A stretch of DNA of 64,000 nucleotides from Patescibacteria group bacterium (GTDB lineage Bacteria > Patescibacteriota > JAQUNI01). The notes under the pieces are model-generated. The model was not told the DNA's origin and made no database searches. It worked only from the letters and a program-made list of their open reading frames with translations. The translations under genes were made by a program, and so were the position numbers. Below, piece after piece: positions 26,465 through 51,020 of this stretch (the first letter of the stretch is position 1; every line of letters starts with the position of its first letter). The stretch is taken from the NCBI GenBank assembly GCA_028717685.1, contig JAQUNI010000001.1, forward strand, positions 143,451 through 207,450, in the 5' to 3' direction.

Positions 26465-29400
26465 TTAATCTTCGCCTTTCTTTTCTCCCCCTTCTTTGAT
26501 TATCCACCAATTAAATTCCGTATCTTCTGACACTTCTTCCAGAGCAGAAACGGTAAAACTTTTCTCGCCCACTTCAGACAAATAAATAAATGTGGAAGAT
26601 AGTGGGGTTATACCAATAAATGAATCTTTGGTTACTTCCTCATTCTCAAAAACTGCGTCTTTTTTTCCTGCTTCAATAACACCTGTGCCTGTGATTATAT
26701 TGGTTATCTTACCTACAACCTCTAAATCACCTTTCACCACCACTTTCGGTTCGGGCACAGTGTCATTTGCTTCCCCGGGATTCAATTCCAGAATGCCAGT
26801 TTCCGAGAGAATCCTGCCCGAAACAAGCTTTAGCTCCCCTTTCACCTTTACATTCCCGTCCTTATCTACCGCGAAGTTCTCGCTATTAATCTCTAAGCCT
26901 GTGGCAGCATCCAGAACAAGGTATTTGTTGGGGTCGCCGATTATTACTTTGTCCTCCACAATCTTTACAATCTGCTGTAAATTCTGTGTTTCTTCTTCTA
27001 GTTCTTGAATCCTGGCGGTATTCGCTTGGTTGGATTCCATTACTGTTAAAATAGAGGCGCTTAAAGTGTTTAATTGATTGGAGACATTCTCCAGATTGCT
27101 CAAACTGTCTACTAGGGTTTGGAGGGTGCTTTGCAGTGATTCTAGATCAACTTGCTCGGAAGAAGCCCCCTCTACCATTTGTGCTGGCGCTGTGTCAGCA
27201 TCATTTTCCGTAATTTGTGATTCGTAATTCGTAATTCGGGTCTCCAGATCCTGAATCCTTGATTCTTGATCTTTGATTCTTGATTCTAAAGACAGAATTC
27301 CTGATTCCTGATTCCCTATCCCTAATTCCAAGCCAGTGAGACGCGAGGTCGTGTCGCCCGCGGAAATACCAAGTTCATTCTGCACTAATTGCATATTATC
27401 ATCTATGACCGATAGCTTTTGCTGCTGCTCCTTGAGCACCTCATTCTGATAAAGGGAGATCCGTTCATATTTGATTGCGTCAGGTCTGCCTTGCTCGTCA
27501 TATATTACAAGGTTAGAAAGGCCTAAAGCGTCAAATTCTTCGGCAATAAAGCCGACATCCCTCTTTCCTGTTGCTTTATCAATAAAGGAGGTAGGTCTTG
27601 CTTCTAGAATCTTGGTAAAGTCATCTTGCAGGGTCTGCACATCATCTTTGTATCGCAAAGAGGAAGTAGAACGGTAGACACTGCCCGTGGTCGTATCAAT
27701 AAACATATTGGCGGCGGAAGCGGAAGTGTCTATATTTGCAATGACAAACTTGGTGCCAGGGGCGCTCGTGCCGATACCGATCGCGCCCGTGGAGGTAATC
27801 ACGAAGGCGGGCGTTGCCCCACCTAAAGTAGCAGCAGTTTCAATCTTGAATTTATCGCTATCGCTGTCATCAACTCCCACGGAGAATTTAGTAGAATCAG
27901 CAATTTTAAAGTCTAAAATAGGATCACCAGAAGCTTTATTTAAAGAAAGAAGATTGTCTGGCGTGCTCGTCCCGATGCCGACGTTTCCGCTCATTATGGA
28001 CATCCCGCCTTGATAGATATGATTAGTTGACACAACATTCATTTCAGATTTGCCAGAGGTCATTACTTGGTGTGTGCCACCACTCCAATTCCAAGACACG
28101 GCGACAAACAAACCATTGCCATAGGTTACTGACATCCACCAATTTGATTCGGGCGCGGTTCTAGTTGTCCAGGTGATGCCATCGGGTGAAGTCATTACTC
28201 GGTTAGTGTCAGTTAGACCAACGGCGACAAACAAACCATTGCCATAGGTTACTGAATTCCAAGAATCTGCTACTGCGGTTCTAGCTGTCCAGGTGATACC
28301 ATCAGGCGAAGTCATTACTCGGTGTGTGCCACTGTGACCAACTGCCACAAACAAACCATTGCCATAAGTTACTGCATACCACGTATTTGCTTCGGCTGCG
28401 GTTCTAGCTGTCCAGGTAATGCCATCGGGCGAAGTCATTACCCGGTTGGTGCCATTATAAGCGACGGCGACAAACAAACCATTGCCATAGGTTACTGAAT
28501 ACCACGAATTTGCTTCGGGCGCGGTTCGGGCTGTCCAAGTGATGCCGTCAGGCGAAGTCATTACTCGGTGTGTGCCGCTGTAAGCAACTGCGACAAACAA
28601 GCCATTGCCATAAGTTACTCCTTCCCATTTATTTGCTTCGGCCGCGGTTCGGGCTGTCCAAGTGATGCCATCAGGAGAAGTCATTACTCGGTGTGTGCCA
28701 GTTTCAGCGACTGCCACGAATAAACCATTGCCATAAGTGACCCAATTCCACCCATTTGCTTCGGCTGCAGTTCGGGCTGTCCAGGTGATGCCATCGGGCG
28801 AAGTCATTACTCGGTTGGTGCCATTATAAGAGACGGCGACAAACAAGCCATTGCCATAAGCTACCCCATTCCACGTATTTGCTTCGGTCGCGGTTCGGGC
28901 TATCCAGGAAGTTCCTTTGGATATGATGTTGCCAACAACTTCTAACTTCTCGCCTGGTGTTGTCGTCCCCACCCCAAGCCTGTTATTCGTGTCATCCCAG
29001 TAAAAATTAGCGTTATCTTGAGCCAGCGCGCCTGCGGCATCAGTGAAAACCACCGAGCCTTGGGTAAAACCAGGGGTAATGGTGCCGATAACATTGCCAT
29101 AGATTGTGCCGTCAACCTCTAAAACATCCTCTACATAGAGGTCTCCGTCTCCTGTGGCATAATTCACTGTTCCGCCATTGCCAATAAAGACGTTGCGGTT
29201 AAACCAAGCGTCTTGATGGACGCGCAGAGTGCCTGCTGTTTCCACATCCCCTGTTTTGCCGTTAACAATAAATTTGTCATCGTCTATGTAGATTCCGCCA
29301 TTTGCCTCTAGAATGCCGGTGAGCTTGGTCTGACCATCTACGGTAAGATTATTGTAAAGATGGGCATCTTTAATCACAATCAGTTCTTGACCGACTTTTA

Positions 29401-30409
29401 CATTACCTGCTACATCAAGCTTATGCTGGGGGTATTTAGTGCCAATGCCTACTTGATCATTAGTAGTATCAACATAGAGAGCCTTTGTTCCGACCGTGAA
29501 GTTGCCCCCAACATCCACACTCTTTTGCAATTCAGTTGACCCTTTAACTTCAATACCACTACCAAAATATACTTTCCCAAGCAGGCTCAAGTCCTGTGAT
29601 GTGCTGGCACCGTTAGTGGTAACATTCTGTAAATTGATATTATTGGAAGAGGCATTAGAGACTATCTTGGGGATAGAGTCGCCTAAAACAATCTCTGAAG
29701 ATGGATGGGATTCCGATGTTTGTTCCGTAGGGGAAGAGGCTTGCGGTTTAATCTTGCTGTTTAAGGCTAGATCGTCTGTTTGAAGATTATGGATTATGGA
29801 TCCTGTATTTTGGTCAACATTTTTTAGTAAACTACTAAATACTTTTAATGGGAAATATCCTCTTTCCGCAGAAACACCTCTCACAAAAACCAGAGTATTG
29901 GCGAAAAGGACTATGAGGATCAAAAGAGTTAAGAAAACGGGTCTAAAACGAGGAGGCGGAACAACAAATCTGGACCAAAAGGACAACGATGGTTTTAGGT
30001 TTTTCAGGATTTTATTCTTGAAAACGGATTTGAAGCGGAGCAATGTGGAAGATGATTCAGATTGGGGGGATAACAATAATTTCAGGTCTTCAAAAACTTT
30101 GAAGCTCTTGATTGGCGCCTTTACCCTGTTAGACAGTAACCCCCTTAAAGCCTCTGGTCTCTTACGGAATAAACATCTAATGGAGCCAGGGCAGTTTGTT
30201 AGCCCCGTTAGAAATAAATTTCTAAACGGGGTTAGAGAACAAGGTTCTCTAACGGGGTTTACTGACCCTAACGGTTTACAGGTGAAACCGAGAGCAAGAC
30301 ATCGGGAGCGTATCTTAAACATAAGATGAGAATATTTTTTATGAATACAAAACCCACCCCTTGAAAACAGAGAAATAATTTTTGAAACTATAGGGCTTTT
30401 TGTTTGCAT
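26465..30409 (-). CDS. Giant cell-surface protein. Layout: N-terminal signal anchor, ~7 Asp-box-like beta-propeller repeats, GIGT tail-fibre-like motifs, Peptidase_S74-like intramolecular chaperone domain, C-terminal coiled coil
   Basis: 1314-aa ORF. It contains repeats of ~40 aa (NRVMTSPDGITWTARTAAEANxWxxVTYGNGLFVAV), GIGT motifs (VGIGTKYPQHKLDVAGNV, IGIGTSAPGTKFVIA), a chaperone-like segment (SLRYKDDVQTL...GFIAEEFDALGLSNLVIYDEQG) and heptad-rich ESRI repeats. A family B repeat at 30203-30258 lies inside the 5' end of the ORF, so the true start is probably downstream, for example TTG 29987 or TTG 29923 just before the VFLTLLILIVLFANTLVFV anchor. Confidence 0.7.
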   Translation of the reverse strand: MQTKSPIVSKIISLFSRGGFCIHKKYSHLMFKIRSRCLALGFTCKPLGSVNPVREPCSLTPFRNLFLTGLTNCPGSIRCLFRKRPEALRGLLSNRVKAPIKSFKVFEDLKLLLSPQSESSSTLLRFKSVFKNKILKNLKPSLSFWSRFVVPPPRFRPVFLTLLILIVLFANTLVFVRGVSAERGYFPLKVFSSLLKNVDQNTGSIIHNLQTDDLALNSKIKPQASSPTEQTSESHPSSEIVLGDSIPKIVSNASSNNINLQNVTTNGASTSQDLSLLGKVYFGSGIEVKGSTELQKSVDVGGNFTVGTKALYVDTTNDQVGIGTKYPQHKLDVAGNVKVGQELIVIKDAHLYNNLTVDGQTKLTGILEANGGIYIDDDKFIVNGKTGDVETAGTLRVHQDAWFNRNVFIGNGGTVNYATGDGDLYVEDVLEVDGTIYGNVIGTITPGFTQGSVVFTDAAGALAQDNANFYWDDTNNRLGVGTTTPGEKLEVVGNIISKGTSWIARTATEANTWNGVAYGNGLFVAVSYNGTNRVMTSPDGITWTARTAAEANGWNWVTYGNGLFVAVAETGTHRVMTSPDGITWTARTAAEANKWEGVTYGNGLFVAVAYSGTHRVMTSPDGITWTARTAPEANSWYSVTYGNGLFVAVAYNGTNRVMTSPDGITWTARTAAEANTWYAVTYGNGLFVAVGHSGTHRVMTSPDGITWTARTAVADSWNSVTYGNGLFVAVGLTDTNRVMTSPDGITWTTRTAPESNWWMSVTYGNGLFVAVSWNWSGGTHQVMTSGKSEMNVVSTNHIYQGGMSIMSGNVGIGTSTPDNLLSLNKASGDPILDFKIADSTKFSVGVDDSDSDKFKIETAATLGGATPAFVITSTGAIGIGTSAPGTKFVIANIDTSASAANMFIDTTTGSVYRSTSSLRYKDDVQTLQDDFTKILEARPTSFIDKATGKRDVGFIAEEFDALGLSNLVIYDEQGRPDAIKYERISLYQNEVLKEQQQKLSVIDDNMQLVQNELGISAGDTTSRLTGLELGIGNQESGILSLESRIKDQESRIQDLETRITNYESQITENDADTAPAQMVEGASSEQVDLESLQSTLQTLVDSLSNLENVSNQLNTLSASILTVMESNQANTARIQELEEETQNLQQIVKIVEDKVIIGDPNKYLVLDAATGLEINSENFAVDKDGNVKVKGELKLVSGRILSETGILELNPGEANDTVPEPKVVVKGDLEVVGKITNIITGTGVIEAGKKDAVFENEEVTKDSFIGITPLSSTFIYLSEVGEKSFTVSALEEVSEDTEFNWWIIKEGGEKKGED
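30203..30258. repeat. Family B palindromic unit (CCCCGTTAGAAAT-aaa-ATTTCTAAACGGGG + TTAGAGAAC-aa-GGTTCTCTAACGGGG)
   Basis: Two adjacent perfect hairpins. Copies or relatives lie at 48381-48427, 8997-9105, 21436-21470 and 56204-56240. Confidence 0.65.
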
Positions 30410-30868: not shown

Positions 30869-32455
30869 TTAGTCTTGAACAATTACCGGCGTTCCTATTG
30901 CCGCCCAATCGTAAAGCTGTTTAGCCGGTCCCACACCGAGGCGCACGCAGCCATGAGAAACGCGCACACCTAAATGATTAGCCCCTTCCTTATAACCGCC
31001 CGGCCATTCGGGCAATTCATGAATGCCATGACCTTTAGTAGTAAAAGCCATCCAATAGGGCATATATAACCCATATTTAGAAGACCAGGCGCGCGGATTT
31101 TTACTTAAAATGTGAAAATTACCCAAGGGAGTGCCCATACCAGGCCGACCTGTAGATACCTTAGTGTCTAAAAATATTTTCTCTCCTTCATAAGCCTTCA
31201 AATTTTGCTCTGAAATGTCAATCACAATCTTCTTTAAACCATTGAAATTGTAGTTCAAAGCAGGCAAGATAATAATTTCCGCAATATGATCGCCATCTAA
31301 ATCTGCCGCCGCCAGGTTCACCCCGCCATTAAAATTCTTTTCAAAAGGATAATAACTGTAACCAGTCTGGTTCATCGCTTGGGAGCTAACGCCACTCACC
31401 AGACTTGGTTCCTTAAGATTACCTCCCACCCCCTCCTTTCTCCCCGCTCCGGGCAAGGGGAGAGCCGCTCCCATTCTCTCTTTTTCAGAATCAGTATCTT
31501 CTTGCGCGATTTTCACCCCGCCGATATTATAAGGGGAACTCTTCTGAATCTCGCCCAAGTGATTGAACGCCCGCACATGCGGCGCGCCGCCCGGACCAGC
31601 GCCAGCCAAAATCTCACTCTTGCCGTCAAAATTCAAATCCGCCGCGGCGATATCCACGCCGCCCTTGAAACCTTGATCAAAGGCGATGAAGCTGGATTCT
31701 AAAAGGCCATTACTCTTATATACTTTAATCTGGGCTTTATCCTGACGCGCGGCAGAAACGATAATCTCCGGAAGTTTATCTCCGTCCACATCCGCCGCGG
31801 CGATATCCACGCCACCCTTGAAGTCGCGCGGAAAAGGATAAAGGACAAAATCAGTCCGCGTACCATTTCCTTTAAAAACACGCACCTCGGAGCGCGTACC
31901 CTGCCCTCGCGAAACCAAAATTTCCGCATTATGATCGCCGTCTAAATCCGCAAGGGCAATGTGCACGCCGCCCCGAAACGCCGCTGGTTCTCCAAAAAAA
32001 TCCGCTAAAACAGTTTTGTTTAGGTCTGCCTTGTAAACCTTGATATGGGCGCTCTCGCGGGAAGCAACCGCCACCGCAATTTCATCCTTTTGGTCGCCAT
32101 TAACATCCCCACAAGCCACATCAACGCCTCCCAAAAATTCTGCGTCAAAAGGATAGATTACATAATTGGTCTTTTTGCCTCGATAGTCATAAACGCGCAC
32201 TTCGCTTCTCCGACCCGGTCCTGAACCAATCACAATTTCCTTATGACCATCACCATTTAGATCCCCCACGCAAACCGAAACCCCGCCGCGGAAATCATTT
32301 TCAAATAAATTAAAATCCTGGCCTTGTTTAAGGTCCACAGCTTTGAAAATACGACCGAGACCAAAATAATCGCGAGCCTCTACACTTTTTAATGGCCCAA
32401 AAATCATTCCTGACATTAAAACTGCCGTAAAAATTATTGTTTTTGTTTTTGTCAT
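30869..32455 (-). CDS. Secreted FG-GAP repeat beta-propeller protein fused to a C-terminal L,D-transpeptidase (YkuD) catalytic domain
   Basis: 528 aa with a signal peptide. Six or more FG-GAP-like repeats are present (GDLNGDGHKEIVIGSG, ADLDGDHNAEILVS, ADVDGDKLPEIIVSA, ADLNFDGKSEILAGAG, ADLDGDHIAEIIIL). The C-terminal HGIHELP...GVRVSHGCVRL contains the LDT active-site His and Cys motif. Confidence 0.8.
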   Translation of the reverse strand: MTKTKTIIFTAVLMSGMIFGPLKSVEARDYFGLGRIFKAVDLKQGQDFNLFENDFRGGVSVCVGDLNGDGHKEIVIGSGPGRRSEVRVYDYRGKKTNYVIYPFDAEFLGGVDVACGDVNGDQKDEIAVAVASRESAHIKVYKADLNKTVLADFFGEPAAFRGGVHIALADLDGDHNAEILVSRGQGTRSEVRVFKGNGTRTDFVLYPFPRDFKGGVDIAAADVDGDKLPEIIVSAARQDKAQIKVYKSNGLLESSFIAFDQGFKGGVDIAAADLNFDGKSEILAGAGPGGAPHVRAFNHLGEIQKSSPYNIGGVKIAQEDTDSEKERMGAALPLPGAGRKEGVGGNLKEPSLVSGVSSQAMNQTGYSYYPFEKNFNGGVNLAAADLDGDHIAEIIILPALNYNFNGLKKIVIDISEQNLKAYEGEKIFLDTKVSTGRPGMGTPLGNFHILSKNPRAWSSKYGLYMPYWMAFTTKGHGIHELPEWPGGYKEGANHLGVRVSHGCVRLGVGPAKQLYDWAAIGTPVIVQD

Positions 32456-32879: not shown

Positions 32880-33344
32880 TTGATGGAAATTGGATATGAA
32901 GGAGGAAGGATAAATATGTTAAATTCTGAAGTCGCTGAAAGGTTATTGTTTATTGGTATGAATGAAGAATTAAAAAAGAAGGTGTTTTTACTAAAAAACC
33001 TTCTGGAGGAAATTGCTCAAAAGCTGGGAGGAGAGGTATTTCCAGCAATCCAAATAGTGGAAGAGAAAAAGTTTCTTGATTACGAAATTAGGATTAAAGC
33101 GAGAACAGCGCTTTTTTCACGGCTCATTACTATTGCCAGGGCATATTTTCTGCATGGTTTTAGCGGTGACGATGGAAAATGGACCGACCTTAGAGTCGCT
33201 TTCAGAAAAGATAGGTGCCCTCAATCCATCTTTTCACAGCTAGAGCTAGAAATGAATAAAGAAACTGTGGATCGGCACCCCATCAAGGTAGAATATGTTG
33301 ACTACAAAAAAGACCAAAAGGAAGGCTTTTTTAGAAAACTTTAA
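32880..33344 (+). CDS. Hypothetical protein (154 aa)
   Basis: A plus-strand ORF with a Shine-Dalgarno (aggagctaatttgATG), followed by a bidirectional terminator. Confidence 0.5.
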   Translation: MMEIGYEGGRINMLNSEVAERLLFIGMNEELKKKVFLLKNLLEEIAQKLGGEVFPAIQIVEEKKFLDYEIRIKARTALFSRLITIARAYFLHGFSGDDGKWTDLRVAFRKDRCPQSIFSQLELEMNKETVDRHPIKVEYVDYKKDQKEGFFRKL

Positions 33345-33432
33345 ATTATATTTATTCTACCTCTGCGGCGCGAAGCTCATTTTACCCATAAGGGAAGAAC
33401 TTTACTTCCCTTACCTATCCTTACTATAAATA

Positions 33433-33466
33433 AAAAGCCCCTCTTGATTTCCAGGGCTTTTTTTAT
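33433..33466. terminator. Bidirectional rho-independent terminator
   Basis: An aagccc-ctcttgatttcc-agggctt hairpin is flanked by aaaaa on one side and ttttttt on the other. It serves the plus-strand gene ending at 33344 and the minus-strand ATPase operon ending at 33478. Confidence 0.6.
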
Positions 33467-33477
33467 TTTCCAGAACA

Positions 33478-33780
33478 TTAATAACCTAACAATAATTGAA
33501 TCCTCTCCCCCTCTCCTTCCAAAACCTGCCCCTCTCTTTCCACGCGCGTCGTTCCTCGCATATGCATTGGCTTCATATTTTCAAAATGCAAATCAATAAA
33601 TAAATTTCCATCCTGATCTAATGAAGGATGGGCGTGGAAGCGCGGGTAAAAACCAGCGCCAAGCCGGCGCACATATCCTAATTCTCTGCTTCTTGGATCA
33701 CGCAGGGGCTGATAGCCCAAACGGCGCATAAGGTTAGGAATGTTTTCTCTAATTTTTTCTTTAGATATTTCAATACGCAT
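33478..33780 (-). CDS. Hypothetical 100-aa protein encoded at the distal end of the V/A-ATPase operon
   Basis: ORF 10 nt downstream of the atpD stop. No recognisable family. Confidence 0.4.
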   Translation of the reverse strand: MRIEISKEKIRENIPNLMRRLGYQPLRDPRSRELGYVRRLGAGFYPRFHAHPSLDQDGNLFIDLHFENMKPMHMRGTTRVEREGQVLEGEGERIQLLLGY

Positions 33781-33790
33781 AATTTTAAGA

Positions 33791-34414
33791 TTAGGCTTGC
33801 GCCGCGATCATAGCTTTTACTTTCATCAGCCGCGTCAAATTCCCTCTCTCTTGTTCATCTAATTTCATTGTAATCTCGCGGATCGCGGACTGCAAATTTG
33901 GCACTAAAACATATTCCAAAGAATTTACTCTCCGCCGCGTTTTCTCAATCTCGCGGCTAAGCATTAAAATCGCTTTTTCAGTCTGCGCCAAGCGGACCAT
34001 TTTTTCTAAAGAAGTCTCAAATCCTTTCAAACTTGTATCCAATTCCGCGACAGTATCCAAATAACCATAGCAAATCGGTTCTCCTTCCTTTTGAACCTCA
34101 AAAAGCGGCACTTTGATATTCATTATATTCTTCTCGCTTGTTTGCAGGGAAAGCTTCATCTTGGACAACATCAAAGCCGCCTCTAGGCTTTGGGCTGGCA
34201 TTTCCGCGGCGGCGAAAGCAAAAGACAAAAAAGCTTCGCTCAATGATTTTTCTACCGCTTCGCGAACATCCTTGGCTTCGCGGACTACCTGCATAAAATC
34301 TTTCATTAGTCCGTCCCGTTTCTCTTTTAATAATTTATGCCCTCTTTGCGCGACTTTGAGCCGCTTTTTCAATTTAAGCAGCTCCACGCGCGTGGGGTTG
34401 ATTTTGACTTGCAT
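33791..34414 (-). CDS. atpD: V/A-type ATP synthase subunit D
   Basis: 207 aa. Starts MQVKINPTRVELLKLKKRLKVAQRGHKLLKEKRDGLMKDF, the canonical V-type D subunit N-terminus. Confidence 0.85.
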   Translation of the reverse strand: MQVKINPTRVELLKLKKRLKVAQRGHKLLKEKRDGLMKDFMQVVREAKDVREAVEKSLSEAFLSFAFAAAEMPAQSLEAALMLSKMKLSLQTSEKNIMNIKVPLFEVQKEGEPICYGYLDTVAELDTSLKGFETSLEKMVRLAQTEKAILMLSREIEKTRRRVNSLEYVLVPNLQSAIREITMKLDEQERGNLTRLMKVKAMIAAQA

Positions 34415-34507
34415 TATTTTAGAACCCCTCCCCGCCCGCAGGTCTTGAGAGGGAGAAATTATTATCCCCTTCTGGTCTCAAGGGAGTTAGGAGGAGAAAA
34501 GAGGGAG

Positions 34508-35935
34508 TTATCTCTTAAAATACTTCTCAATCATTTCCGGCTTCACTCTCTTTAACTCGGACTGCGGTAAAATAGACAAAAGTTCCCAGCCCAAACTCAA
34601 TGTTTGAATAATGTCACGATCCTCATATTCACCTTGGCGGACGAATTTGTCTTCAAAGAGAGAGGCAAACTTTAAATATTTTTTATCGGTTTCATCCAAA
34701 CTCTCTTCGCCCAAAATCACGGCTAATTCTTCCACTTCCTTACCGCGGGCATAAGAAGCGAATAACTGATTTAAAACACCGGAATGATCCTCGCGGGTTT
34801 TACCTTCGCCGATTCCTTTGTCTTTAAGCCGGGAAAGGGAAGGTAAAACATCCACGGGCGGAAAAATCCCCTTGCGGTGCAATTCGCGGCTAAACATAAT
34901 TTGGCCTTCGGTAATGTAACCGGTTAAATCGGGCACGGGATGGGTTTTGTCGTCCTCGGGCATGGAAAGGATCGGAATCTGCGTGATGGAACCGGGCTTG
35001 CCTTTAATGCGCCCCGCGCGTTCATAAATTGTAGAAAGGTCGGTATAAAGATAACCCGGATAACCACGCCGACCCGGAATTTCTTTGCGCGCCGCCGAAA
35101 CTTCGCGCAAGGCTTCACAATAATTAGTCAGATCAGACATAATGACTAGTACATCCATTCCCTTTTCAAAAGCCAAATATTCAGCGCAGGTTAAAGCCAT
35201 TCTGGGCGTTGCAATCCGCTCCACCACGGGATCATTAGCAAGGTTAATAAACAGCACCGAACGCTCAATCGCTCCGGTTTTCTTAAAATCATTTTGAAAA
35301 AAATTCGCCTCATCAAAAGTGATACCCATCGCCACAAACACCACCGCAAACTTCGTCTCTTTTCGGTCTTTATTCCGTGATTCGTGATTCGTGATTCGTG
35401 ATTCGGTATGCCGTAAATCCCAGCGCATCTTTGCCTGCCTCGCGATTTGAGCCGCAAGGCGCGCGTGCGGCAGACCAGCGCCCGAAAAAATAGGCAGTTT
35501 CTGACCACGCACCAGCGTGTTCATGCCGTCAATCGTGGAAACGCCGGTTTGAATAAATTCATCGGGATAAGAACGGGCATAAGGATTTAAAGGCAAACCA
35601 TTGATATCTAATTCTTGGTCTGGAATAATTCTAGGTCCGCCATCAATCGGCTTGCCCGCGCCAGAAAACACCCGACCTAGAATATCCTCGGATACCGGCA
35701 GTCTCAAACCTCGTCCCAAGAATTTGACCTTGGTGCCAGCACGCGGCACGCCTTGCGGCGCTTCAAAGAGCTGGATTAAGGTGAGCTCGCGTCCGGCTTC
35801 CAGAACCTTGCCTAGTATTTTGCGACCTTCTTTTGTTTCCACTTCCACTAATTCTTCATACTTTGCGCCTTCAATCTTTTCCAAAATTATTAAAGGTCCC
35901 GCAATTTCTTTCACTGTTTTATAAGCTTTGGACAT
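34508..35935 (-). CDS. atpB: V/A-type ATP synthase subunit B (regulatory), with an in-frame heptamer-repeat insertion
   Basis: 475 aa with a V-type B fold. At 35374-35401 the sequence (gattcgt)x4 is translated as [12 protein letters not shown] inside an approximately 25-aa loop insertion. Confidence 0.92.
35374..35401. repeat. Heptanucleotide tandem repeat (GATTCGT x4) inside the atpB coding sequence
   Basis: gtgattcgtgattcgtgattcgtgattcg. The unit length of 7 means any copy-number change would shift the frame. Confidence 0.8.
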
Positions 35936-35937
35936 AA

Positions 35938-35985
35938 AAATAAAGTTAAAAGTTAAAAGTGAAAAGGTAAAAGCTATTGCACATC
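35938..35985 (-). promoter_or_regulatory. CUUUUAA-type heptamer leader array upstream of atpB
   Basis: The coding strand reads gcaatagcttttaccttttcacttttaacttttaactttatttttATG. Confidence 0.45.
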
Positions 35986-35987
35986 AA

Positions 35988-37739
35988 TTACACCACTTTC
36001 TCTATCTTCTCCCAAACCTTTTTATACTCTGCCTCTATTTTATCTTCGGGAATAAATTTGAGTCGGGCAATATCTTCAATAATTTCCTGCTTAAATAATG
36101 CCTTCAAGTCCAACTCGTTAACTTTGGAAAGCGCTAAATCGTAGAAATCAATAATAATCTTTAACATACCGTATTGTTTAGATAAGGAGGTATAGGTATC
36201 AATTTCATCAAAGGCATTCTGATGCAAAAAGTCTTCCCGAATCATCCGGGCAACGCGCAAGATTAATTGGTCCCGCGAACCTAAAGCGTCAAAACCGACC
36301 AAACGCACAATCTCTTCCAGATTGGCTTCTTCCTGCAAAATTTCCATTGCTCTTTGACGATACTGGTTAAAATCCGCGGCGACATTATTTTTAAAATACT
36401 CCTCTAAATTTTCAGTGTATAAAGAATAGCTGGTCAGCCAATTAATCGCTGGGAAATGGCGCTTGTAGGCGAGCGCTGAATCCAAAGCCCAAAAAACCTT
36501 GGTAACCCGCAAAGTGTTTTGCGTCACCGGTTCAGAAAAATCGCCGCCCGGCGGCGAGACCGCGCCAATCACGGACAAAGAGCCAACGCGCTTCTCCGAT
36601 CCTAAACACTCCACGCGGCCAGCGCGTTCATAAAACGCCGCCGTCCGCGTGCCGAGATACGCAGGATAACCTTCTTCACCGGGCATCTCCTCCAGCCGTC
36701 CTGACATTTCCCGCAAAGCCTCGGCCCAGCGCGAAGTGGAATCCGCGGTAAGCGCGACTTTGTAACCCATATCACGATAATATTCAGCGATGGTAATCCC
36801 GGTGTAAATAGACGCTTCGCGCGCCGCCACAGGCATATTAGAAGTATTGGCAATCAAAATCGTGCGCTCCATTAATTGTCTTCCCGATTTCGGATCTTTC
36901 AATTCCGGAAATTCAATCAAAACATCGGTCATCTCATTCCCCCGCTCCCCGCAGCCGATAAAAACGATAATCTCCGCATCTGCCCATTTAGCTAACTGAT
37001 GCTGAACCACAGTCTTCCCGGACCCAAAAGGACCCGGCACGCAAGCTGTGCCGCCTTGGGCAAGCGGGAAAAAGGTATCAATCACTCTCTGTCCTGAAGC
37101 CATTAAAGTATCAATGGGTAAATTTTGTTTCACCGGCCGCGGAATCCGAATCGGCCAACGCTGCAACATTGTAATCTCTTGTTCGCCTTGCGCTGTTTTA
37201 ATCTTCGCGACAATATCTTCCACTTTGGATTGACCAGCCTTTATTGCCGTGATTTTCCCCCGCGCACCCTGAGGCACCATAATTTTATGCATAATCAAGG
37301 AGGTTTCTTGAACCGTACCTAGAATATCGCCTTCCTTCACAACATCCCCTTCCTTTTTTACAGGCTTAAAATCCCATTCCTTTTCGCGGTCAATCCCCGG
37401 TACTTCCATACCCCTCGCAATAAAAGCGCCAGACTTGGCAAAAATCAAATCTAATGGTCTTTGAATGCCGTCATAGATGGCTTTAATCATTCCCGGTCCC
37501 AGTTCCACAGACAAAGGTCTGCCAGTTGTCTCCACTAACTCTCCCGGTCCAACACCGGCGGTGTCCTCATATACTTGAATGGAGGCTTGGTCTTGGTTTA
37601 AGCCAATAATCTCGCCGATTAATTTTTTCTCCCCCACTTTGACCACATCAAACATCCGCGCATTAGGGATGCCTTCGGCGATCACAAGCGGACCGGAAAC
37701 TTTAACAATGATTCCCTGTTTATTTTCTAAATTAGACAT
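35988..37739 (-). CDS. atpA: V/A-type ATP synthase subunit A (catalytic)
   Basis: 583 aa. Contains the Walker A motif GPFGSGKT and the non-homologous region typical of V/A-type A subunits. Confidence 0.92.
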
Positions 37740-37740
37740 A

Positions 37741-37790
37741 GTTTAAAAAAGCTAAAAATTAAAAGCGAAAAGCTAAAAGTTAAAATTCTT
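37741..37790 (-). promoter_or_regulatory. Heptamer leader array (AGCTTTT/AACTTTT) upstream of atpA
   Basis: The coding strand reads gaattttaacttttagcttttcgcttttaatttttagcttttttaaactATG. Confidence 0.4.
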
Positions 37791-37794
37791 CTAA

Positions 37795-38124
37795 TTACCT
37801 TTTGGTTACATCAGTCCCGACCGCGCGCAACATCGCATCGTGAATAATTTTAGAAGCAAAACCTTTCGCTCCGGAAGGATCAGGAATAATGGTAATCGCT
37901 GGAAAGGTTTGCTCATTTAATTGTTGAATCATCCCATAAATCTCTTCAGCCAAAGATTCAGGAATAAAAAGAACACCTAAATCATCTTGCGCGATTTGAT
38001 TGAGTCTCGCGCGCGCTTCGGCGCTATCCCTCACCGCGTATGTCTCCATTCCTAAAGCGTGGAAGCCTGCAATAGTTTCTTTTTTACCTATAATGCCAAT
38101 TTTCATATTCCGTGGTGAAATCAC
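37795..38124 (-). CDS. atpF: V/A-type ATP synthase subunit F
   Basis: 109 aa. MKIGIIGKKETIAGFHALGMETYAV matches the F-subunit fold. Confidence 0.7.
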   Translation of the reverse strand: MISPRNMKIGIIGKKETIAGFHALGMETYAVRDSAEARARLNQIAQDDLGVLFIPESLAEEIYGMIQQLNEQTFPAITIIPDPSGAKGFASKIIHDAMLRAVGTDVTKR

Positions 38125-38157
38125 CCGTAGAGACGTTGCACTGCAACGTCTCTACTT

Positions 38158-39129
38158 TTAGTATCCCACCAGCCTGTGAATTTCTGCGGACCCAATCCCA
38201 GCACTCTTCATCACCATAATTTTGTGAATCAGCTTTGTCTCCTCTACCTTTACCTGCCAAAAAGCGAAGACCGGCTCAATGCCCAGAATTTTATTCTGCG
38301 CTTTTTCTAAAATTTCAAATAAAATTCGGCGCGCCGCGAGCTCCAAAGAAAGCAGCCCTTCTTTTTCCACCTGCTCTTCAAGATGTTTAAATTCTGCCTG
38401 CTCTGCGAAATCGTCAATGGACTTAACAAATTTATCTTCATTAGAAATTTTAAACCGCCGCAAGGGAATCAAACCGCCGGGAATAAAATCCGCTTCCTTC
38501 CCTCCCTCACCCCGAATACGAAAATAAATTTTCACATTAAACAAATCAATCTCTCGCCGCAGAAAATCCTTCAAAATCTTAGATTTAATTCGCGCAAGTT
38601 CCCTTATTAAAATCTCAATATATTTACGATCTAAAATCAAATCAATTTCTTGAGGATCTTGATTTTTTTCATAATTTTCAAAAACTTCACGAATCACCCC
38701 ATTCAGATTGTCAGGCAATTCTTTTTTTGTCCCTTCTAAAATCACCTCCCGTAATGTATCCAATTCAATCGTTCCCAAGTTGTTTAATTGCACATTTTCC
38801 CCCTGAAATTTGAGTTTTATTAATGATTTGAGATTAAGAAAATCATACTTGAGCCATAAAAACCGCAAATCCTTATCTCGTGAAAAAAGTTTTAAAATCA
38901 AATCTTTAACCCCCTCTAAACCCTCATTTAAAACAACATCAAAATCTTTAGGGCCTTTAATGTCTCCTAAATACTGACCATAGTGAGTCTCATTGAAAAC
39001 ATGCAAAGCCTCCTCGGCGTTCTTCGCTTCAATCATTCTCTCAAAATCATTTTGATCCAAAAATTCCGACTCCAAAGTCTTCAAATAAGAAACGAGGTAA
39101 GCATTGTGGGTATGGTTTTGAGGAAACAT
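38158..39129 (-). CDS. atpC: V/A-type ATP synthase subunit C (d-subunit homolog)
   Basis: 323 aa, helical. Assigned from its position between E and F in the canonical operon. Confidence 0.65.
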   Translation of the reverse strand: MFPQNHTHNAYLVSYLKTLESEFLDQNDFERMIEAKNAEEALHVFNETHYGQYLGDIKGPKDFDVVLNEGLEGVKDLILKLFSRDKDLRFLWLKYDFLNLKSLIKLKFQGENVQLNNLGTIELDTLREVILEGTKKELPDNLNGVIREVFENYEKNQDPQEIDLILDRKYIEILIRELARIKSKILKDFLRREIDLFNVKIYFRIRGEGGKEADFIPGGLIPLRRFKISNEDKFVKSIDDFAEQAEFKHLEEQVEKEGLLSLELAARRILFEILEKAQNKILGIEPVFAFWQVKVEETKLIHKIMVMKSAGIGSAEIHRLVGY

Positions 39130-39210
39130 CTTCCTATAACGTGTAACCTCTAAACTTGTAACGCAAGAGTCCTTCTTGAATTACAAGTTTCTGGTTTCAG
39201 ATTACACGCG

Positions 39211-39801
39211 TTACTGAAATAAAATCTTCGCTACTTCACTTTCTAATTCCTGCCGCTTTTCTGCCATCAGATGGTCAAAAATATAATCTTCTTCCATAAA
39301 ATCGCTGGCCGCGATAAAACCGCCTTGACCATTCACTATCTTACTGGATAGCTTAAAACTGGAATGCTTTGGCACTAATTTTGCCAAAACCGATTGACTA
39401 TTCGCAGTCGGGATAATTTTCACTTTTTCCCCGCCCAAATGCTTGCGGACGTTTTTCAAAAACATTTCTAAAAGCTTCTGTCGCGCCACAGGCTCTTGTT
39501 TAGTTAAAGATTCTAAAGCACGGCTAAAAACTTCATCAATTAATGCTTGCTTTTTGCGTAAAAGATTATTCTTTGCTTCCCAGATGGCTTGGATCCTCAT
39601 CTGCTCTCTCAAAGCCTCCTGTAAATGCTTCATCTCTGCGGTAAAAACGCGATATCGCTCTTGGATTCTCTGCTTCACCTCATCCCTCATCTTTTGCGCC
39701 TCTTCTTTGGCTCCGGCTAAAATTTGCTCGGCTTCTTTCGCGCCTTCCGCTAAAATTTTCTCTTTGATGATTTCTAAAGACATCAAAATCCATTGCTTCA
39801 T
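39211..39801 (-). CDS. atpE: V/A-type ATP synthase subunit E
   Basis: 196 aa with an N-terminal long coiled coil (IIKEKILAEGAKEAEQILAGAKEEAQKMRDEVKQRIQE). Confidence 0.7.
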   Translation of the reverse strand: MKQWILMSLEIIKEKILAEGAKEAEQILAGAKEEAQKMRDEVKQRIQERYRVFTAEMKHLQEALREQMRIQAIWEAKNNLLRKKQALIDEVFSRALESLTKQEPVARQKLLEMFLKNVRKHLGGEKVKIIPTANSQSVLAKLVPKHSSFKLSSKIVNGQGGFIAASDFMEEDYIFDHLMAEKRQELESEVAKILFQ

Positions 39802-39900
39802 TGTTTCACCGTTTCATTGTTGAAAATCCGACAATGAAACAACCTCTCGCCTTTAACTAAAGATAAAAGAGTGAAAACAATGTAACAATAGCCTGTTACT

Positions 39901-40371
39901 TTATCCAATCTTAATCCCGTTTATCAGTAAGATTGTAGCCAGTAGTCCTAGAACCGCATAGGTTTCCACCATCGCCGCCATAATCACGCCCTTGCCTGCC
40001 GTAGATTCATCCTTCGTAATCATATGCAATCCGGCAACAGAAACGCGCGCCTGATAAATCGCCGAAATCAGACCACCTATGGCAACAGGAAGGCAGGACA
40101 AAAGTATTTGCCAGCCAATGGCAGTAGGAACTTCAAGGGGATTGCCAGCCAAAAGACCGACTTTTAAAAGCACCCAAAAACAACCCAAAAAACCATAAAT
40201 CCCCTGCGTAGCTGGCAATGCCTGAAGGAGTAAAACCTTACCAAAGATTTCACTCTTTTGACCGGTAACGCCTGCCCCGGCCTCTCCAGCCATACCTACC
40301 CCCAAAATAGAACCGATCCCTGCTAAAATAACCGAGGCTGCTGCTCCGATAATCGCAAGAACAAGACCCAT
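39901..40371 (-). CDS. atpK: V/A-type ATP synthase proteolipid subunit K (c-ring), with a candidate Na+-binding signature
   Basis: 156 aa with four TM helices. It has PATQGIY (T-Q-x-x-Y) in helix 2, Q in ISAIYQ in helix 3, and MVETYAV (E) in helix 4. Confidence 0.8.
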   Translation of the reverse strand: MGLVLAIIGAAASVILAGIGSILGVGMAGEAGAGVTGQKSEIFGKVLLLQALPATQGIYGFLGCFWVLLKVGLLAGNPLEVPTAIGWQILLSCLPVAIGGLISAIYQARVSVAGLHMITKDESTAGKGVIMAAMVETYAVLGLLATILLINGIKIG

Positions 40372-40454
40372 AAATTTAGGACGAATTTATGTCGGGGAAA
40401 TTTATTTGTATTTAACTAATCTTCCCACATAAATCCGCTATTAAACTTTATAAA

Positions 40455-40590
40455 TTTCTAATTCCTAATTGACCTAATTAACCTAAACAATAACTAATGA
40501 TTAATGCCAAAATGTCTAAATATTTGGTCATTCTGAAATTGGTCATTGGACATTATTTAGAATAATTAGAATAATTAGAACAATTAGGTT
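40455..40590. repeat. Family E nonamer array element, copy 2 (between atpI and atpK)
   Basis: ctaattgacctaattaacctaaac ... ttagaataattagaataattagaacaattaggttaatt. It uses the same 9-mer units as 24085-24245, in reversed order. Confidence 0.6.
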
Positions 40591-42541
40591 AATTCCCCTT
40601 TATCTTCGTAAACCTATATTCCCTCTTGAGCGGCTTAAACATCCTCCCTCCGCCTTCCATAAACTTCGGAAAAAATTCCACGAACTGCAGACGCGCGGAA
40701 TGAATAAAGCCGCCTAAAATGTTAATCCCCATATTGAAAAGATGCCCGCCAATCAAAATCGGAATCATCACCAGCACGCCTACATAAGGAACCATATCGC
40801 GAAAAAGCAAAGCGATCACATTAATCACTAACCCGATAATACTGGTGGTTAAACCTAAAGCCAGAAGCCGTGAATATGACAAGATATCCGAAAGCATCCC
40901 TACGACTTTATAAAGCGACAAAAGACCGCTAGTAAACTTCAAAAAGATATTCTTTTTCTGATACCCTTGGGTCAAAACTAAAATTGCAGCGAAACCAATC
41001 ACGGTATAGCCCCCGATTTTAGCCAAAGATGGAAAAAATAATTTCGTGATTCCAAAAAAAATAATCGCCAAGATCGCCCACACCCAAATAAAATCCCCTA
41101 ATAGGGCTTCCTTAATCCTTTTTTTTGATAAAAGATATTTCACATTCACCATCCGCGCAAACCAAGATTGCAACAACCCAAATAACAAAGAAATAATCAT
41201 AATTTGCAAAGGACTTTTAATCGGATCAATAACCTGCAGGGAAAGAAGAAAATCGCGCAAGCTTGATGCTGGGAGATCTATTAAGCTGATGCTGAAATAG
41301 GCTCCGTAAAGCACCCCAACGATGATTGTGGTAATACTGCAATAAATCATTAATTTAAAAAGGCGCTTCACCCCCTCTGACAACTTCAAATATTTCACCG
41401 CTGCCACACTGGCAATCAAAAGGACAATGCCATAACCAGCATCGGAAAGGCACATCCCAAAAAATATCGCGAAAAAGAAGGATAAATAAGGGGTGGGGTC
41501 TAATTCATTATATTCTGGAAGGCCGTAGATTCGGGTTACGGATTCAAAGGGCTCCATAAGGTTTCTATTAGCCACAATCACTGGCACCCGTTCACCCTTT
41601 TCTTTCTCTGTCTTTTCTAAATAAACACCAGGAAATTTTGGAGGCAAAATTCGCTGTAATCTTTTAAAACCAAAGCTGGAAGTCCAGCCAGAAATAAAAC
41701 TCATATAGCGCGTATCTTCTATCCAACCTGTTGTATCTTTCACTTTCTTCTTATTCTGCCAGTAATCATAAACCATTTTGACCTTTCTTTCCTCGCGGCT
41801 TGCCCGCTTGATTTGCTTTAAGACATCTCTTTTTAATTTATGAATTTCTTCCAGCCTTTCTTCTATTTTTTGAATCTCCGCGGCGGGCGTATTCTCGCAA
41901 GGCAAAACAACAATGCTAAAACCCGTGCTTTGTAAATCGCGCAAAAAGGTCTCTTCATTTTTCTTGAGGTATGTGATCACCAGATAATAATCCTTGACCT
42001 CCTCTTTGACTTTGCGAATATTCACCTCGCCATCCACCACCTTTTTTAAATTGGATAAAGCTTGCGCCGGAAGAACACCCAAGATTGATTTGGTTCTTCC
42101 AGTTTCCAAATCCGCCCGCATCAAACCTAAAGTCTGCCACGGCCTTAAGATCTCCATTTTTTCTATCTGTTCTTTTTCCTCTATTTGCAACCTGACCAAA
42201 TCATTATCCCATTTTTTAAGATCATTCACTAACTTTGAATAATCAAAACTTCGGCAAATTTTTTCAAAATCCTGGTGGGAAAATTCTAGCGGACCAGCCA
42301 AAAATTTTTTGATTCCCGTTAGCGCCCCTTCTTTTTCTTTCACCACGCGCTCCTTAAAAAGATCCAAGACAAAATCCAATTCCGCAAGCAATAAATCAAT
42401 TTCGTGCTCACTAGATGGTTCTTCTTTTTTTGTCCGCACATCCACAACTTCCACATCTCCCCTTTCCTGCAAATAAGAAAGGAGCGCGCTCTTCTGGTGT
42501 TTACGAACCACGATATTAAATTTTTGCATCGGAATGATCAT
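40589..42541 (-). CDS. atpI: V/A-type ATP synthase subunit I (a-subunit)
   Basis: 650 aa with an N-terminal soluble coiled-coil domain and a C-terminal region of about 7 TM helices. Confidence 0.8.
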   Translation of the reverse strand: MIIPMQKFNIVVRKHQKSALLSYLQERGDVEVVDVRTKKEEPSSEHEIDLLLAELDFVLDLFKERVVKEKEGALTGIKKFLAGPLEFSHQDFEKICRSFDYSKLVNDLKKWDNDLVRLQIEEKEQIEKMEILRPWQTLGLMRADLETGRTKSILGVLPAQALSNLKKVVDGEVNIRKVKEEVKDYYLVITYLKKNEETFLRDLQSTGFSIVVLPCENTPAAEIQKIEERLEEIHKLKRDVLKQIKRASREERKVKMVYDYWQNKKKVKDTTGWIEDTRYMSFISGWTSSFGFKRLQRILPPKFPGVYLEKTEKEKGERVPVIVANRNLMEPFESVTRIYGLPEYNELDPTPYLSFFFAIFFGMCLSDAGYGIVLLIASVAAVKYLKLSEGVKRLFKLMIYCSITTIIVGVLYGAYFSISLIDLPASSLRDFLLSLQVIDPIKSPLQIMIISLLFGLLQSWFARMVNVKYLLSKKRIKEALLGDFIWVWAILAIIFFGITKLFFPSLAKIGGYTVIGFAAILVLTQGYQKKNIFLKFTSGLLSLYKVVGMLSDILSYSRLLALGLTTSIIGLVINVIALLFRDMVPYVGVLVMIPILIGGHLFNMGINILGGFIHSARLQFVEFFPKFMEGGGRMFKPLKREYRFTKIKGN

Positions 42542-42593
42542 AAAATCTGATTAATTTAGGCCACGAAGATAGTTAAGCAAGAATTAAAATTCT

Positions 42594-42923
42594 CTAAATT
42601 TCGTTTAAAATTTTCTCTACTACAAAATCCGCCGCTGTTTCAGTTTTACCCTGCGCCTTCGCGGCGATACTTCCGACCTCCTTCTCATTATCTTCTAAAA
42701 TTTCTTTTTCTATCTTCTTTGCTTCTTCAGCCGCGGTTTTTAAAACCTGCTCTTTTTGTTTTAAAAAGTTTTCTTCTTCTCTCTTTATTGCTACTTCTGA
42801 CTCTAAGCGCCCCCTCTCTAAAATCTTTTCTTTTTCTTTGTGCGCCCTTTCTACTATTCTCTGCGCTTCGGCTTCTACTTTTTTAATTTCTTTCAAGGTT
42901 TGTGTTGACGACATTGGTTTCAA
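42594..42923 (-). CDS. atpH: V/A-type ATP synthase subunit H/G-like small coiled-coil subunit
   Basis: 109 aa, all alpha-helical and charged. It is the first gene of the operon, as in ahaH. Confidence 0.5.
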   Translation of the reverse strand: MKPMSSTQTLKEIKKVEAEAQRIVERAHKEKEKILERGRLESEVAIKREEENFLKQKEQVLKTAAEEAKKIEKEILEDNEKEVGSIAAKAQGKTETAADFVVEKILNEI

Positions 42924-43054
42924 AAATTAGCCAAAATAAAAAAATTCTTAAGAAAAAGACATTCAATGCCTAGTTTACTCTAAATTGCAGAAAAAGCAAG
43001 AGATAAATTGTGGATAATCTAAATAAAAAAACCGCCTTCTTATAAAAGGCGGGG

Positions 43055-43555
43055 TTAATCTCTGTATCGTGCCCGATCTGGGACTAATTGAACTAGGCAT
43101 CCTGGAATTTCCCAAAAATTCCTTTTGCTAGCATATCCCGCGTCAAAAGCATCAATTAAGATATGGAAGCAATAAGCAATAATTGGCCAGAAGCTATGGG
43201 TCAAGAACCATGCGCCCAGTATGATAAGCGTAGCCATTGGCCAAGTGTGAAAGAGATTCGCTTTTTTACCCTCGCTCTTAATCCAAGCTTGCCTAAAAGG
43301 AATTTTATCTTGCTTGCGAATCCTTAATGCTATTTTCACTCGTTTCCAGTGGAAAAGATGATCCACGTCCACCAGAACGCCTAGGCAAAAAATAATTGTC
43401 ACAACCCGTGCAGAGTGCCATCCGAAACTTAAAGTCGTTGCCAAATTGTTTAACCAATAAGCCACAAAAACGAAAGTAGTACCTACTATATGTGTTCTCG
43501 AGCTAGCCATTTCATAACCTCCTTCACTATTCTGAACAACAAGAAAACGCGCCAT
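43055..43555 (-). CDS. Hypothetical integral membrane protein (possibly DUF457/YdjM-like metal-dependent membrane hydrolase)
   Basis: 166-aa ORF with 4 TM helices and His/Asp-rich loops. The likely start is MASS.. at the internal Met. Confidence 0.35.
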   Translation of the reverse strand: MARFLVVQNSEGGYEMASSRTHIVGTTFVFVAYWLNNLATTLSFGWHSARVVTIIFCLGVLVDVDHLFHWKRVKIALRIRKQDKIPFRQAWIKSEGKKANLFHTWPMATLIILGAWFLTHSFWPIIAYCFHILIDAFDAGYASKRNFWEIPGCLVQLVPDRARYRD

Positions 43556-50499: not shown

Positions 50500-50946
50500 T
50501 TAGTTTTCATTCTCTTTCACCTTGATGGCGATTTTCTTTGCTTCTGGCTTCTCCACCTTTGGCAAAGTAATCTTCAAGATGCCGTTCTCATAATCCGCCT
50601 CTGCTGTCTCACTCTCCACTGAAGTGGGAAGAGCGACAGCGCGGTAGAAGCTTCCGTAGCGCACCTCTTTACGATAATAATCCTTCTTCTTTTCCTCCTC
50701 TTTACTATCGATTTTGCCTTTAATTATAAGCGTGTCATCCTCTACAGAGATATCTACTTTTTCCGGCTCAATGCCTGGCAGAGCTGTTTCCACGACTACC
50801 TCCTTATCAGTCTGATAAACATCCACAGCAGGAATAAACTCTTTCACTTCTGAAAAACGCGGGCAGCAATCCTCACTCCAAGCATCTTCCATCATATCCC
50901 GCATACTGAATAGATCGCGCATCGGTGATAATTTCATGATTGTCAT
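50500..50946 (-). CDS. Hsp20/alpha-crystallin family small heat-shock protein
   Basis: Has an ACD domain (VDVYQTDKEVVVETALPGIEPEKVDISVEDDTLIIKG...GSFYRAVALP). Start MTIMKLSP with a strong Shine-Dalgarno (aaggaggtgattaatATG). Confidence 0.85.
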   Translation of the reverse strand: MTIMKLSPMRDLFSMRDMMEDAWSEDCCPRFSEVKEFIPAVDVYQTDKEVVVETALPGIEPEKVDISVEDDTLIIKGKIDSKEEEKKKDYYRKEVRYGSFYRAVALPTSVESETAEADYENGILKITLPKVEKPEAKKIAIKVKENEN

Positions 50947-51020
50947 ATTAATCACCTCCTTTCTTATTGAATTATGAATTAGGAATAAAATAATTTCCAA
51001 TATTCCTAATTCATAATTCC

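Follow-up and report, generated by a model that had tools for sequence, protein, structure and literature searches.

A complete V/A-type ATPase operon with a predicted Na+-binding proteolipid in a relative of Candidatus Doudnabacteria

Introduction

Positions 33478 to 42923 of the 64,000-nucleotide stretch analyzed here (the window; contig JAQUNI010000001.1 of the Patescibacteria group bacterium assembly GCA_028717685.1, positions 143,451 to 207,450 of the forward strand) carry the genes of a V/A-type rotary ATPase, followed by a 100-residue open reading frame termed ORF100. The question raised by this locus is which ion the enzyme would move and in which direction, and whether ORF100 is part of it. 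The preferred reading, judged probable, is a complete rotary V/A-type ATPase resembling the Ntp enzyme of Enterococcus hirae, which is Na+-coupled and likely acts as an ATP-driven Na+ pump, with ORF100 as a neighbor.

Enzymes of this kind are well represented in bacteria. The ProAD collection holds 9,167 A-type ATPases, 4,927 of which are predicted to be Na+-specific, and 682 bacterial genera have a Na+ A-type ATPase as their only rotary enzyme (PMC11738941). Among genomes of the Candidate Phyla Radiation (CPR), an A/V-type complex with no F-type enzyme was reported in 3 of 33 by Mahendrarajah et al. (2023), and the A/V-type enzymes of CPR were ascribed to horizontal transfer, possibly from Synergistetes (PMC10656485). 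V-type ATPases have also been described in two CPR orders (PMC11974145). No literature naming Doudnabacteria for an A/V-type ATPase was found, including in a text search of the supplements of PMC10656485. The known picture is left unchanged by the present locus: a Na+ A/V-type enzyme as the single rotary enzyme is common in bacteria, and A/V-type enzymes in CPR have been reported. What is added is a clean, complete predicted Na+-coupled V/A-ATPase in Doudnabacteria, which is useful for metabolic reconstruction of these episymbionts.

Gene order and the ion site of the proteolipid

Ten open reading frames run in one direction on the minus strand from 42923 to 33478. Nine of them (33791-42923) were assigned with Pfam and NCBIfam models to the V/A-ATPase subunits, in the order H-I-K-E-C-F-A-B-D. 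All nine were full length against the family models and free of frameshifts, so that the original prediction of a complete V/A-type ATPase operon on one strand was borne out for all nine families. Judged by these matches, the subunit calls are unambiguous for eight, and that of H is weak but runs end to end and stands in the expected position. The gene order had also been described as archaeal-type. This is true, the archaeal aha operons having the same order (ahaHIKECFABD), but it is not distinctive, since the operon of the bacterium E. hirae (ntpFIKECGABD) is ordered equally.

The proteolipid, subunit K, was compared with the sequences in the PDB using phmmer and matched E. hirae NtpK (2BL2) with E = 3.1e-29, and the Thermus thermophilus proteolipid with E about 7e-4. 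It had been proposed that T-Q-x-x-Y in helix 2, Q in helix 3 and E-T in helix 4 of K match the Na+ site of NtpK, and an alignment of the two proteins had been set beforehand as the test. The residues were present and in register, with T, Q and Y falling on the ion-binding positions. Helix 2 aligned ungapped with an offset of 9, placing L52, T55, Q56 and Y59 of K on L61, T64, Q65 and Y68 of NtpK, of which Leu61 is the carbonyl position and Tyr68 is stabilizing. The second hairpin aligned with an offset of 3, placing Q107 and E136 on Q110 and E139. Q107 is the Gln of helix 3, and E136 is the principal carboxylate of helix 4, followed by T137-Y138. L61, T64, Q65, Y68, Q110 and E139 are the residues given for the Na+ pocket of NtpK (PMC10382590), and the same residues form the defining Na+ ligand set (PMC2359735). 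Two ATP-synt_C stretches were found by Pfam in the 156 residues of K, and helix 2 (LLLQALPATQGIYGF) contains no acidic residue. With no carboxylate in helix 2, each double hairpin therefore carries one ion site, as in NtpK.

The K motif was identical in three related metagenome-assembled genomes (MAGs; L004, L005 and L006, described below), at K identities as low as 76%. Retention of the five ligands and the stabilizing Tyr over this range argues for selection on a complete Na+ site.

The membrane stator was examined in the same way. The best PDB match of subunit I was E. hirae NtpI (8wci_P, 9e-60); the T. thermophilus protein reached 2e-15. Arginines R558 (in SYSRLLALG) and R617 (in HSARLQFVEFF) correspond to R573 and R629 of NtpI, whose role as ring-facing stator arginines has been described (PMC10382590). 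With the ligands in register, both stator arginines kept, and I, K and B nearest to E. hirae among solved structures, Na+ as the coupling ion is a well-supported prediction.

Coupling ion and direction of pumping

By homology, A3B3 would form the catalytic head and D with F the central shaft. C (d) would couple the shaft to the K ring, E and H would form the peripheral stalks, and I would be the membrane stator with its two gating arginines. By alignment, each four-helix K has one ion site, lined by the six residues that bind Na+ in NtpK, and Na+ would be the coupling ion. A single site in each double hairpin would make the ion/ATP ratio low, which favors hydrolysis-driven pumping as in E. hirae. 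Since the host is probably fermentative, the likeliest mode would be ATP-driven Na+ extrusion, again as in E. hirae, and not ATP synthesis. Such a pump would generate a sodium-motive force and serve Na+ homeostasis. Electron transport chains are generally lacking in CPR genomes (PMC8407418).

Several observations weigh against this reading. The score of subunit H falls under the curated cut-off (30 versus 48.5 bits). For subunit A, the archaeal Pyrococcus horikoshii protein gives a slightly better score (795 bits) than that of E. hirae (745 bits), so that the label of E. hirae type rests on I, K and B and on gene order, not on phylogeny. The direction of pumping is drawn only from two points, that each double hairpin has a single site and that CPR bacteria are usually fermentative; the A-ATP synthase of Pyrococcus furiosus has the same single-site double hairpin and still makes ATP. 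A cyo oxidase occurs in some soil Doudnabacteria (PMC8407418). The tight spacing of D and ORF100 is compatible with a functional link between the two. Finally, a full Na+ motif does not prevent an enzyme from translocating H+ when no Na+ is present (PMC2359735), and the specificity is here read from sequence only.

This last behavior, that Na+-dependent ATPases move protons when Na+ is absent, is also what an alternative view of the coupling ion would draw on, namely that the same V/A-ATPase is physiologically H+-coupled, or promiscuous for Na+ and H+, and works with protons in low-Na+ habitats that these bacteria may occupy. The 64-kb window showed no recognizable Na+-coupled transporter and no Na+/H+ antiporter, which would fit such an enzyme. 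All five ligands and the stabilizing Tyr are kept, however, in relatives down to 76% K identity, and the complete motif is treated as Na+-specific both by ProAD (PMC11738941) and by Mulkidjanian et al. (PMC2359735). Proton or mixed coupling is accordingly considered distinctly unlikely, and Na+ is retained as the predicted coupling ion.

As to direction, the complex could instead be mainly a Na+-driven ATP synthase that uses a gradient from another system or from the host interface. Prokaryotic A/V-type enzymes are reversible, and both the T. thermophilus enzyme and the archaeal A-ATP synthases make ATP. The V-type ATPases of CPR have been read as ATP-generating (PMC11974145), and the terminal oxidase of some Doudnabacteria (PMC8407418) would agree with this mode. 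The single site per four-helix K, with its low ion/ATP ratio, points the other way, as do the general lack of electron transport chains in CPR genomes and the window itself, in which no primary Na+ pump and no respiratory gene was found. A mainly synthetic role is regarded as possible, though not probable, and ATP-driven Na+ extrusion is preferred.

Identity of ORF100

ORF100 lies at 33478..33780 on the minus strand after a 10-nt gap following D, and gave no family hit. That it is co-oriented with atpD and 10 nt from it, as had been noted, was confirmed. Eight close homologs were found, 48-94% identical in the alignment and with 26 invariant columns, by which ORF100 is taken to be a real gene under purifying selection. 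It stands next after atpD in every related locus that contains atpD (L001, L003-L006, L018 and L019), down to 59% ORF100 identity; in L003 the two are adjacent reading frames. This arrangement was seen in the close clade only. Co-transcription of ORF100 with the operon is plausible from the layout, and a weak promoter-like site (9/12 matches) is located inside the 3′ end of D.

Searches with ORF100 returned no match in Pfam, NCBIfam, PHROG or PDB sequences. Its AlphaFold model has a predicted local distance difference test (pLDDT) score of 85.5 and the topology beta-alpha-beta4-alpha. Comparison of this fold with the PDB gave no significant match, the best being AMPK alpha C-terminal and KA1 domains with E >= 0.018 and a template-modeling score (TM) of about 0.4. 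When 1.84 billion representatives were searched with a profile, 432 family clusters at 50% identity were collected, 213 of them at E <= 1e-10. The family has invariant or almost invariant His, Asp and Glu residues. Judged by these clusters it is much wider than the V-ATPase-bearing clade, its members coming mostly from CPR MAGs.

The genes around distant members were read from fetched flanks of up to 10 kb on each side. None of 11 loci had V-ATPase genes nearby. In seven of the 11 the ORF100 homolog was directly upstream of dnaG, and rpoD was next in the six with enough flank; these dnaG-linked loci are among L007-L013 and L016, with the homolog around position 10001 in most. A ZIP-family metal transporter gene was located just upstream of the homolog in four distant loci. 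The distant loci were labeled Parcubacteria, Uhrbacteria, Magasanikbacteria, Patescibacteria-group MAG and unclassified bacterial MAG, and five further MAGs were labeled 'uncultured Gammaproteobacteria'.

The original prediction had offered ORF100 as a lineage-specific accessory subunit, a role that, for the V-ATPase of Doudnabacteria, can be widened to assembly or regulation. The gene is co-oriented, 10 nt past atpD with no strong terminator found between them in the scan, the D-then-ORF100 order is kept in all related loci with atpD, and the protein is under apparent purifying selection. E. hirae likewise has a small gene with no assigned role, ntpH, after ntpD. Against this stand the lack of similarity to V/A subunits in Pfam, NCBIfam, PDB sequences and PDB folds, the size of the family, the absence of V-ATPase genes from all 11 distant flanks, the position immediately before dnaG in seven of them, and the promoter-like site within the 3′ end of D. 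The FG-GAP/YkuD and Asx-tRNA synthetase genes farther downstream are syntenic too in the close clade. Since genes beyond ORF100 are thus also kept in order in the Doudnabacteria clade, its adjacency to atpD can be plain conservation of local gene order. An accessory subunit is very improbable on this evidence, and the assignment of ORF100 as a tenth subunit was rejected on the distribution of the family. It is likewise highly doubtful that the gene was recruited in Doudnabacteria into the V-ATPase unit as a regulator or assembly factor coupling Na+ pumping to another process. Because the family usually lies upstream of dnaG-rpoD, ORF100 is placed, from its homologs and their surroundings, as a neighbor and a member of a separate uncharacterized family rather than as a tenth subunit.

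Two other identities were tried for ORF100. In the classical macromolecular-synthesis operon the slot before dnaG-rpoD is held by rpsU, and a divergent ribosomal protein bS21 was considered. This was rejected, as ten family members gave no Ribosomal_S21 match at E <= 1 and the confident model is a beta-sheet protein, in contrast to S21, which is helical. A HicA-like or toxin-like protein was also rejected, having no Pfam, PHROG or PDB support. The ORF100 family is the more open item of the locus, being widespread, found mostly in CPR MAGs, unannotated and usually linked to dnaG-rpoD.

Individual subunit assignments

Subunit H (42594..42923, minus strand) is a G/H-like peripheral-stalk coiled coil, which we take to be the equivalent of E. 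hirae NtpF. It matched TIGR02926 (AhaH) at 4.5e-7, with positions 1-84 of the 85 of the model covered, and PF16999 at 0.009. Among PDB sequences only weak similarity to F-type b-subunits was obtained. H is the weakest assignment of the nine, and rests partly on its first place in the operon and on its coiled-coil character. An in-frame ATG is present at 42914, three codons into the gene.

Subunit I, the a-subunit and membrane stator (40589..42541, minus strand), matched PF01496, and NF004428 at 6e-101 over its full length. Subunit K (39901..40371, minus strand) is a double-hairpin proteolipid that matched PF00137 twice and NF005124 with 159.7 bits, above the cut-off of 127. Subunit E of the peripheral stalk (39211..39801, minus strand) matched PF01991 with 24.5 bits, the gathering score being 24.2, and NF002629 at 3.9e-14 over its full length; it also matched P. 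horikoshii E (2dm9) at 3e-4 across residues 9-195. The NF002629 alignment of E starts at residue 7, a Met, as does the match to L004, and the start of E is likely to be M7, at about 39783. Subunit C, the d/AC39 rotor socket (38158..39129, minus strand), matched PF01992 at 8.6e-47 and NF002266 at 2.8e-52. Subunit F (37795..38124, minus strand) matched PF01990 at 1.5e-17 and NF002384 at 4.4e-25, the latter alignment again beginning at a Met in residue 7, so the F start is likely to be M7, at about 38106.

Catalytic subunit A (35988..37739, minus strand) matched TIGR01043 at 2e-278. Both its Walker A motif, GPFGSGKT (residue 236), and its catalytic motif, GERGNEM (residue 264), are present. PF16886 (ATP-synt_ab_Xtn), the model of the non-homologous insert, matched at 1.5e-31. 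Among PDB sequences A scored 795 bits with P. horikoshii, 745 with E. hirae and 700 with T. thermophilus. The window A gene (35988..37739) contains no intein. In the related MAG L006 (4013-7297 of contig CAZKRD010000001.1) an insertion of ~470 residues with two LAGLIDADG-like motifs, FIGYLLADGN and FIGAYIACDGS, splits the P-loop of A (GPFGSGK|C ... HN|T). From these motifs the insertion looks like a VMA-type intein, and the same site is empty in the window A gene.

Non-catalytic subunit B (34508..35935, minus strand) matched NF003235 at 5e-229, and its best PDB match was E. hirae NtpB with 663 bits. Relative to NtpB it has a 19-residue charged loop insertion after QIARQAK (35340-35420, residues about 169-195). 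The length and sequence of this loop differ among L004, L005 and L006, and its flanks are identical. Subunit D of the central stalk (33791..34414, minus strand) matched PF01813 at 5.5e-57 and NF001543 at 8.7e-72.

Boundaries of the transcription unit

An intrinsic terminator of the upstream gene (43055-43555) was located at 43032..43052 on the minus strand. It has a 9-bp stem followed by a T-run, with a folding energy of -12.4 kcal/mol and z = -4.6, and is predicted to mark the 5′ boundary of the operon transcription unit. Between this terminator and H a promoter-like pair, TTGCTT/TAAACT, was chosen by eye. At the other end, a terminator-like hairpin with a U-run was read from the sequence at 33432..33462 (minus strand), 16 nt past the ORF100 stop codon. 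Its energy was -12.6 kcal/mol with a weak z of -1.7, and the transcription unit probably ends there. It was missed by the consensus terminator scan, probably because of its 11-nt loop. The terminator scan found no strong terminators between the genes of the operon.

A perfect 13-bp hairpin (38127..38155, minus strand; -21.7 kcal/mol, z = -6.5) lies in the mRNA between the stop codon of C and the start codon of F, and none of 200 shuffles folded as well. In L004 and L005 the C-F junction has different, unrelated spacers that are yet rich in inverted repeats. The hairpin may be an intra-operon mRNA processing or stability element. The spacer between I and K (40372-40588) is unusually long (217 nt) and AT-rich, with short tandem TTCTAATTA units and an inverted pair CCTAATTG...CAATTAGG. 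No Rfam match was obtained in this spacer or elsewhere inside the operon; the Rfam scan returned two tRNAs elsewhere in the window.

A 154-residue open reading frame at 32880-33344 (plus strand) is convergent with the operon and has no Pfam match. It is conserved in some relatives: its counterpart in L005 is 60% identical, and in L001 and L018 this place is taken by a gene on the opposite strand. In L002, L003 and L006 it is missing from that position.

Host and genomic setting

The proteins of the window were 86-98% identical in amino acid sequence to those of a Candidatus Doudnabacteria MAG contig, JBAZQX010000006.1 (L004), which was found through the ORF100 profile search of genome contigs and carries the same ten genes. 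In the MAGs L005 and L006 the operon and the genes downstream of it are also present, less identical than in L004. From these identities the host is assigned as a Candidatus Doudnabacteria relative within the CPR, which agrees with the original prediction of a small-genome bacterium, the lineage being CPR/Patescibacteria.

The rest of the window is core chromosome, with a dcw cluster from mraZ to murB, hrcA-grpE-hsp20-dnaK-dnaJ, enolase and iPGM. It also holds glycosyltransferases, an Asx-tRNA synthetase and two tRNAs. The original prediction also allowed that the ATPase could be the sole ion-motive system of the host. No F-type atp genes and no other primary ion pumps were found in the 64-kb window. 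The G+C content of A and B is 0.455, against about 0.40, and is equalled by other conserved genes such as dnaK. Recent horizontal transfer was rejected on this ground and because the locus is syntenic in L004-L006. As the operon lies in a syntenic core region of several related MAGs, any acquisition would predate divergence of the clade.

Directly downstream of the operon, at 30869-32455 (minus strand), is a gene for a secreted protein that joins FG-GAP repeats to a YkuD L,D-transpeptidase domain, syntenic in all relatives. Adjoining it at 26465-30409 (minus strand) is a gene for a 1,314-residue protein that gave only a faint EPTP repeat match. In the chaperone cluster, an Hsp20 gene (50500-51000, minus strand) is inserted between grpE and dnaK of an otherwise canonical hrcA-grpE-dnaK-dnaJ arrangement.

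Comparison with known systems

The published A/V-type enzymes of CPR (PMC10656485; MAGs of Paceibacterales and UBA6257, PMC11974145) are likewise complete A/V complexes in CPR genomes. They were found in genomes without F-type genes and were ascribed to horizontal acquisition; the Na+ motif was not discussed and Doudnabacteria were not named.

The H+ V/A-ATPase of T. thermophilus is likewise bacterial and of V/A type, and its subunits are homologous to those encoded here. Its proteolipid, unlike K of the present locus, consists of one hairpin and lacks the T/Q/Q ligands.

The archaeal A1AO synthases (Methanosarcina mazei, Pyrococcus) are built from homologous subunits too. A is nearest to that of P. 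horikoshii, E matches P. horikoshii E, and H weakly matches AhaH. Unlike in the archaeal enzymes, I and K are much closer to bacterial E. hirae than to the other solved V/A enzymes, and the scores here lie below the archaeal equivalog cut-offs (TIGR01043, 924.6 versus 972; TIGR01041, 756.5 versus 844.65).

The E. hirae Na+ V-ATPase (2BL2 for the K-ring, 8WCI for the holoenzyme and 3VR2 for V1) differs from the present enzyme in several respects. The host here is a CPR bacterium and not a Firmicute, and the identity is moderate. The alignment of I with NtpI starts at residue 71, with a posterior accuracy of 0.79. B carries the 19-residue variable loop insertion, and at the 3′ end there is no homolog of ntpH or ntpJ (KtrB), an unrelated 100-residue gene being found instead. 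In other respects the two agree. The same nine subunit types are encoded in the same order, the E. hirae proteins are the top-scoring solved structures for I, K and B, both stator arginines of I are kept, and K is a 156-residue double hairpin whose Na+ ligands are identical.

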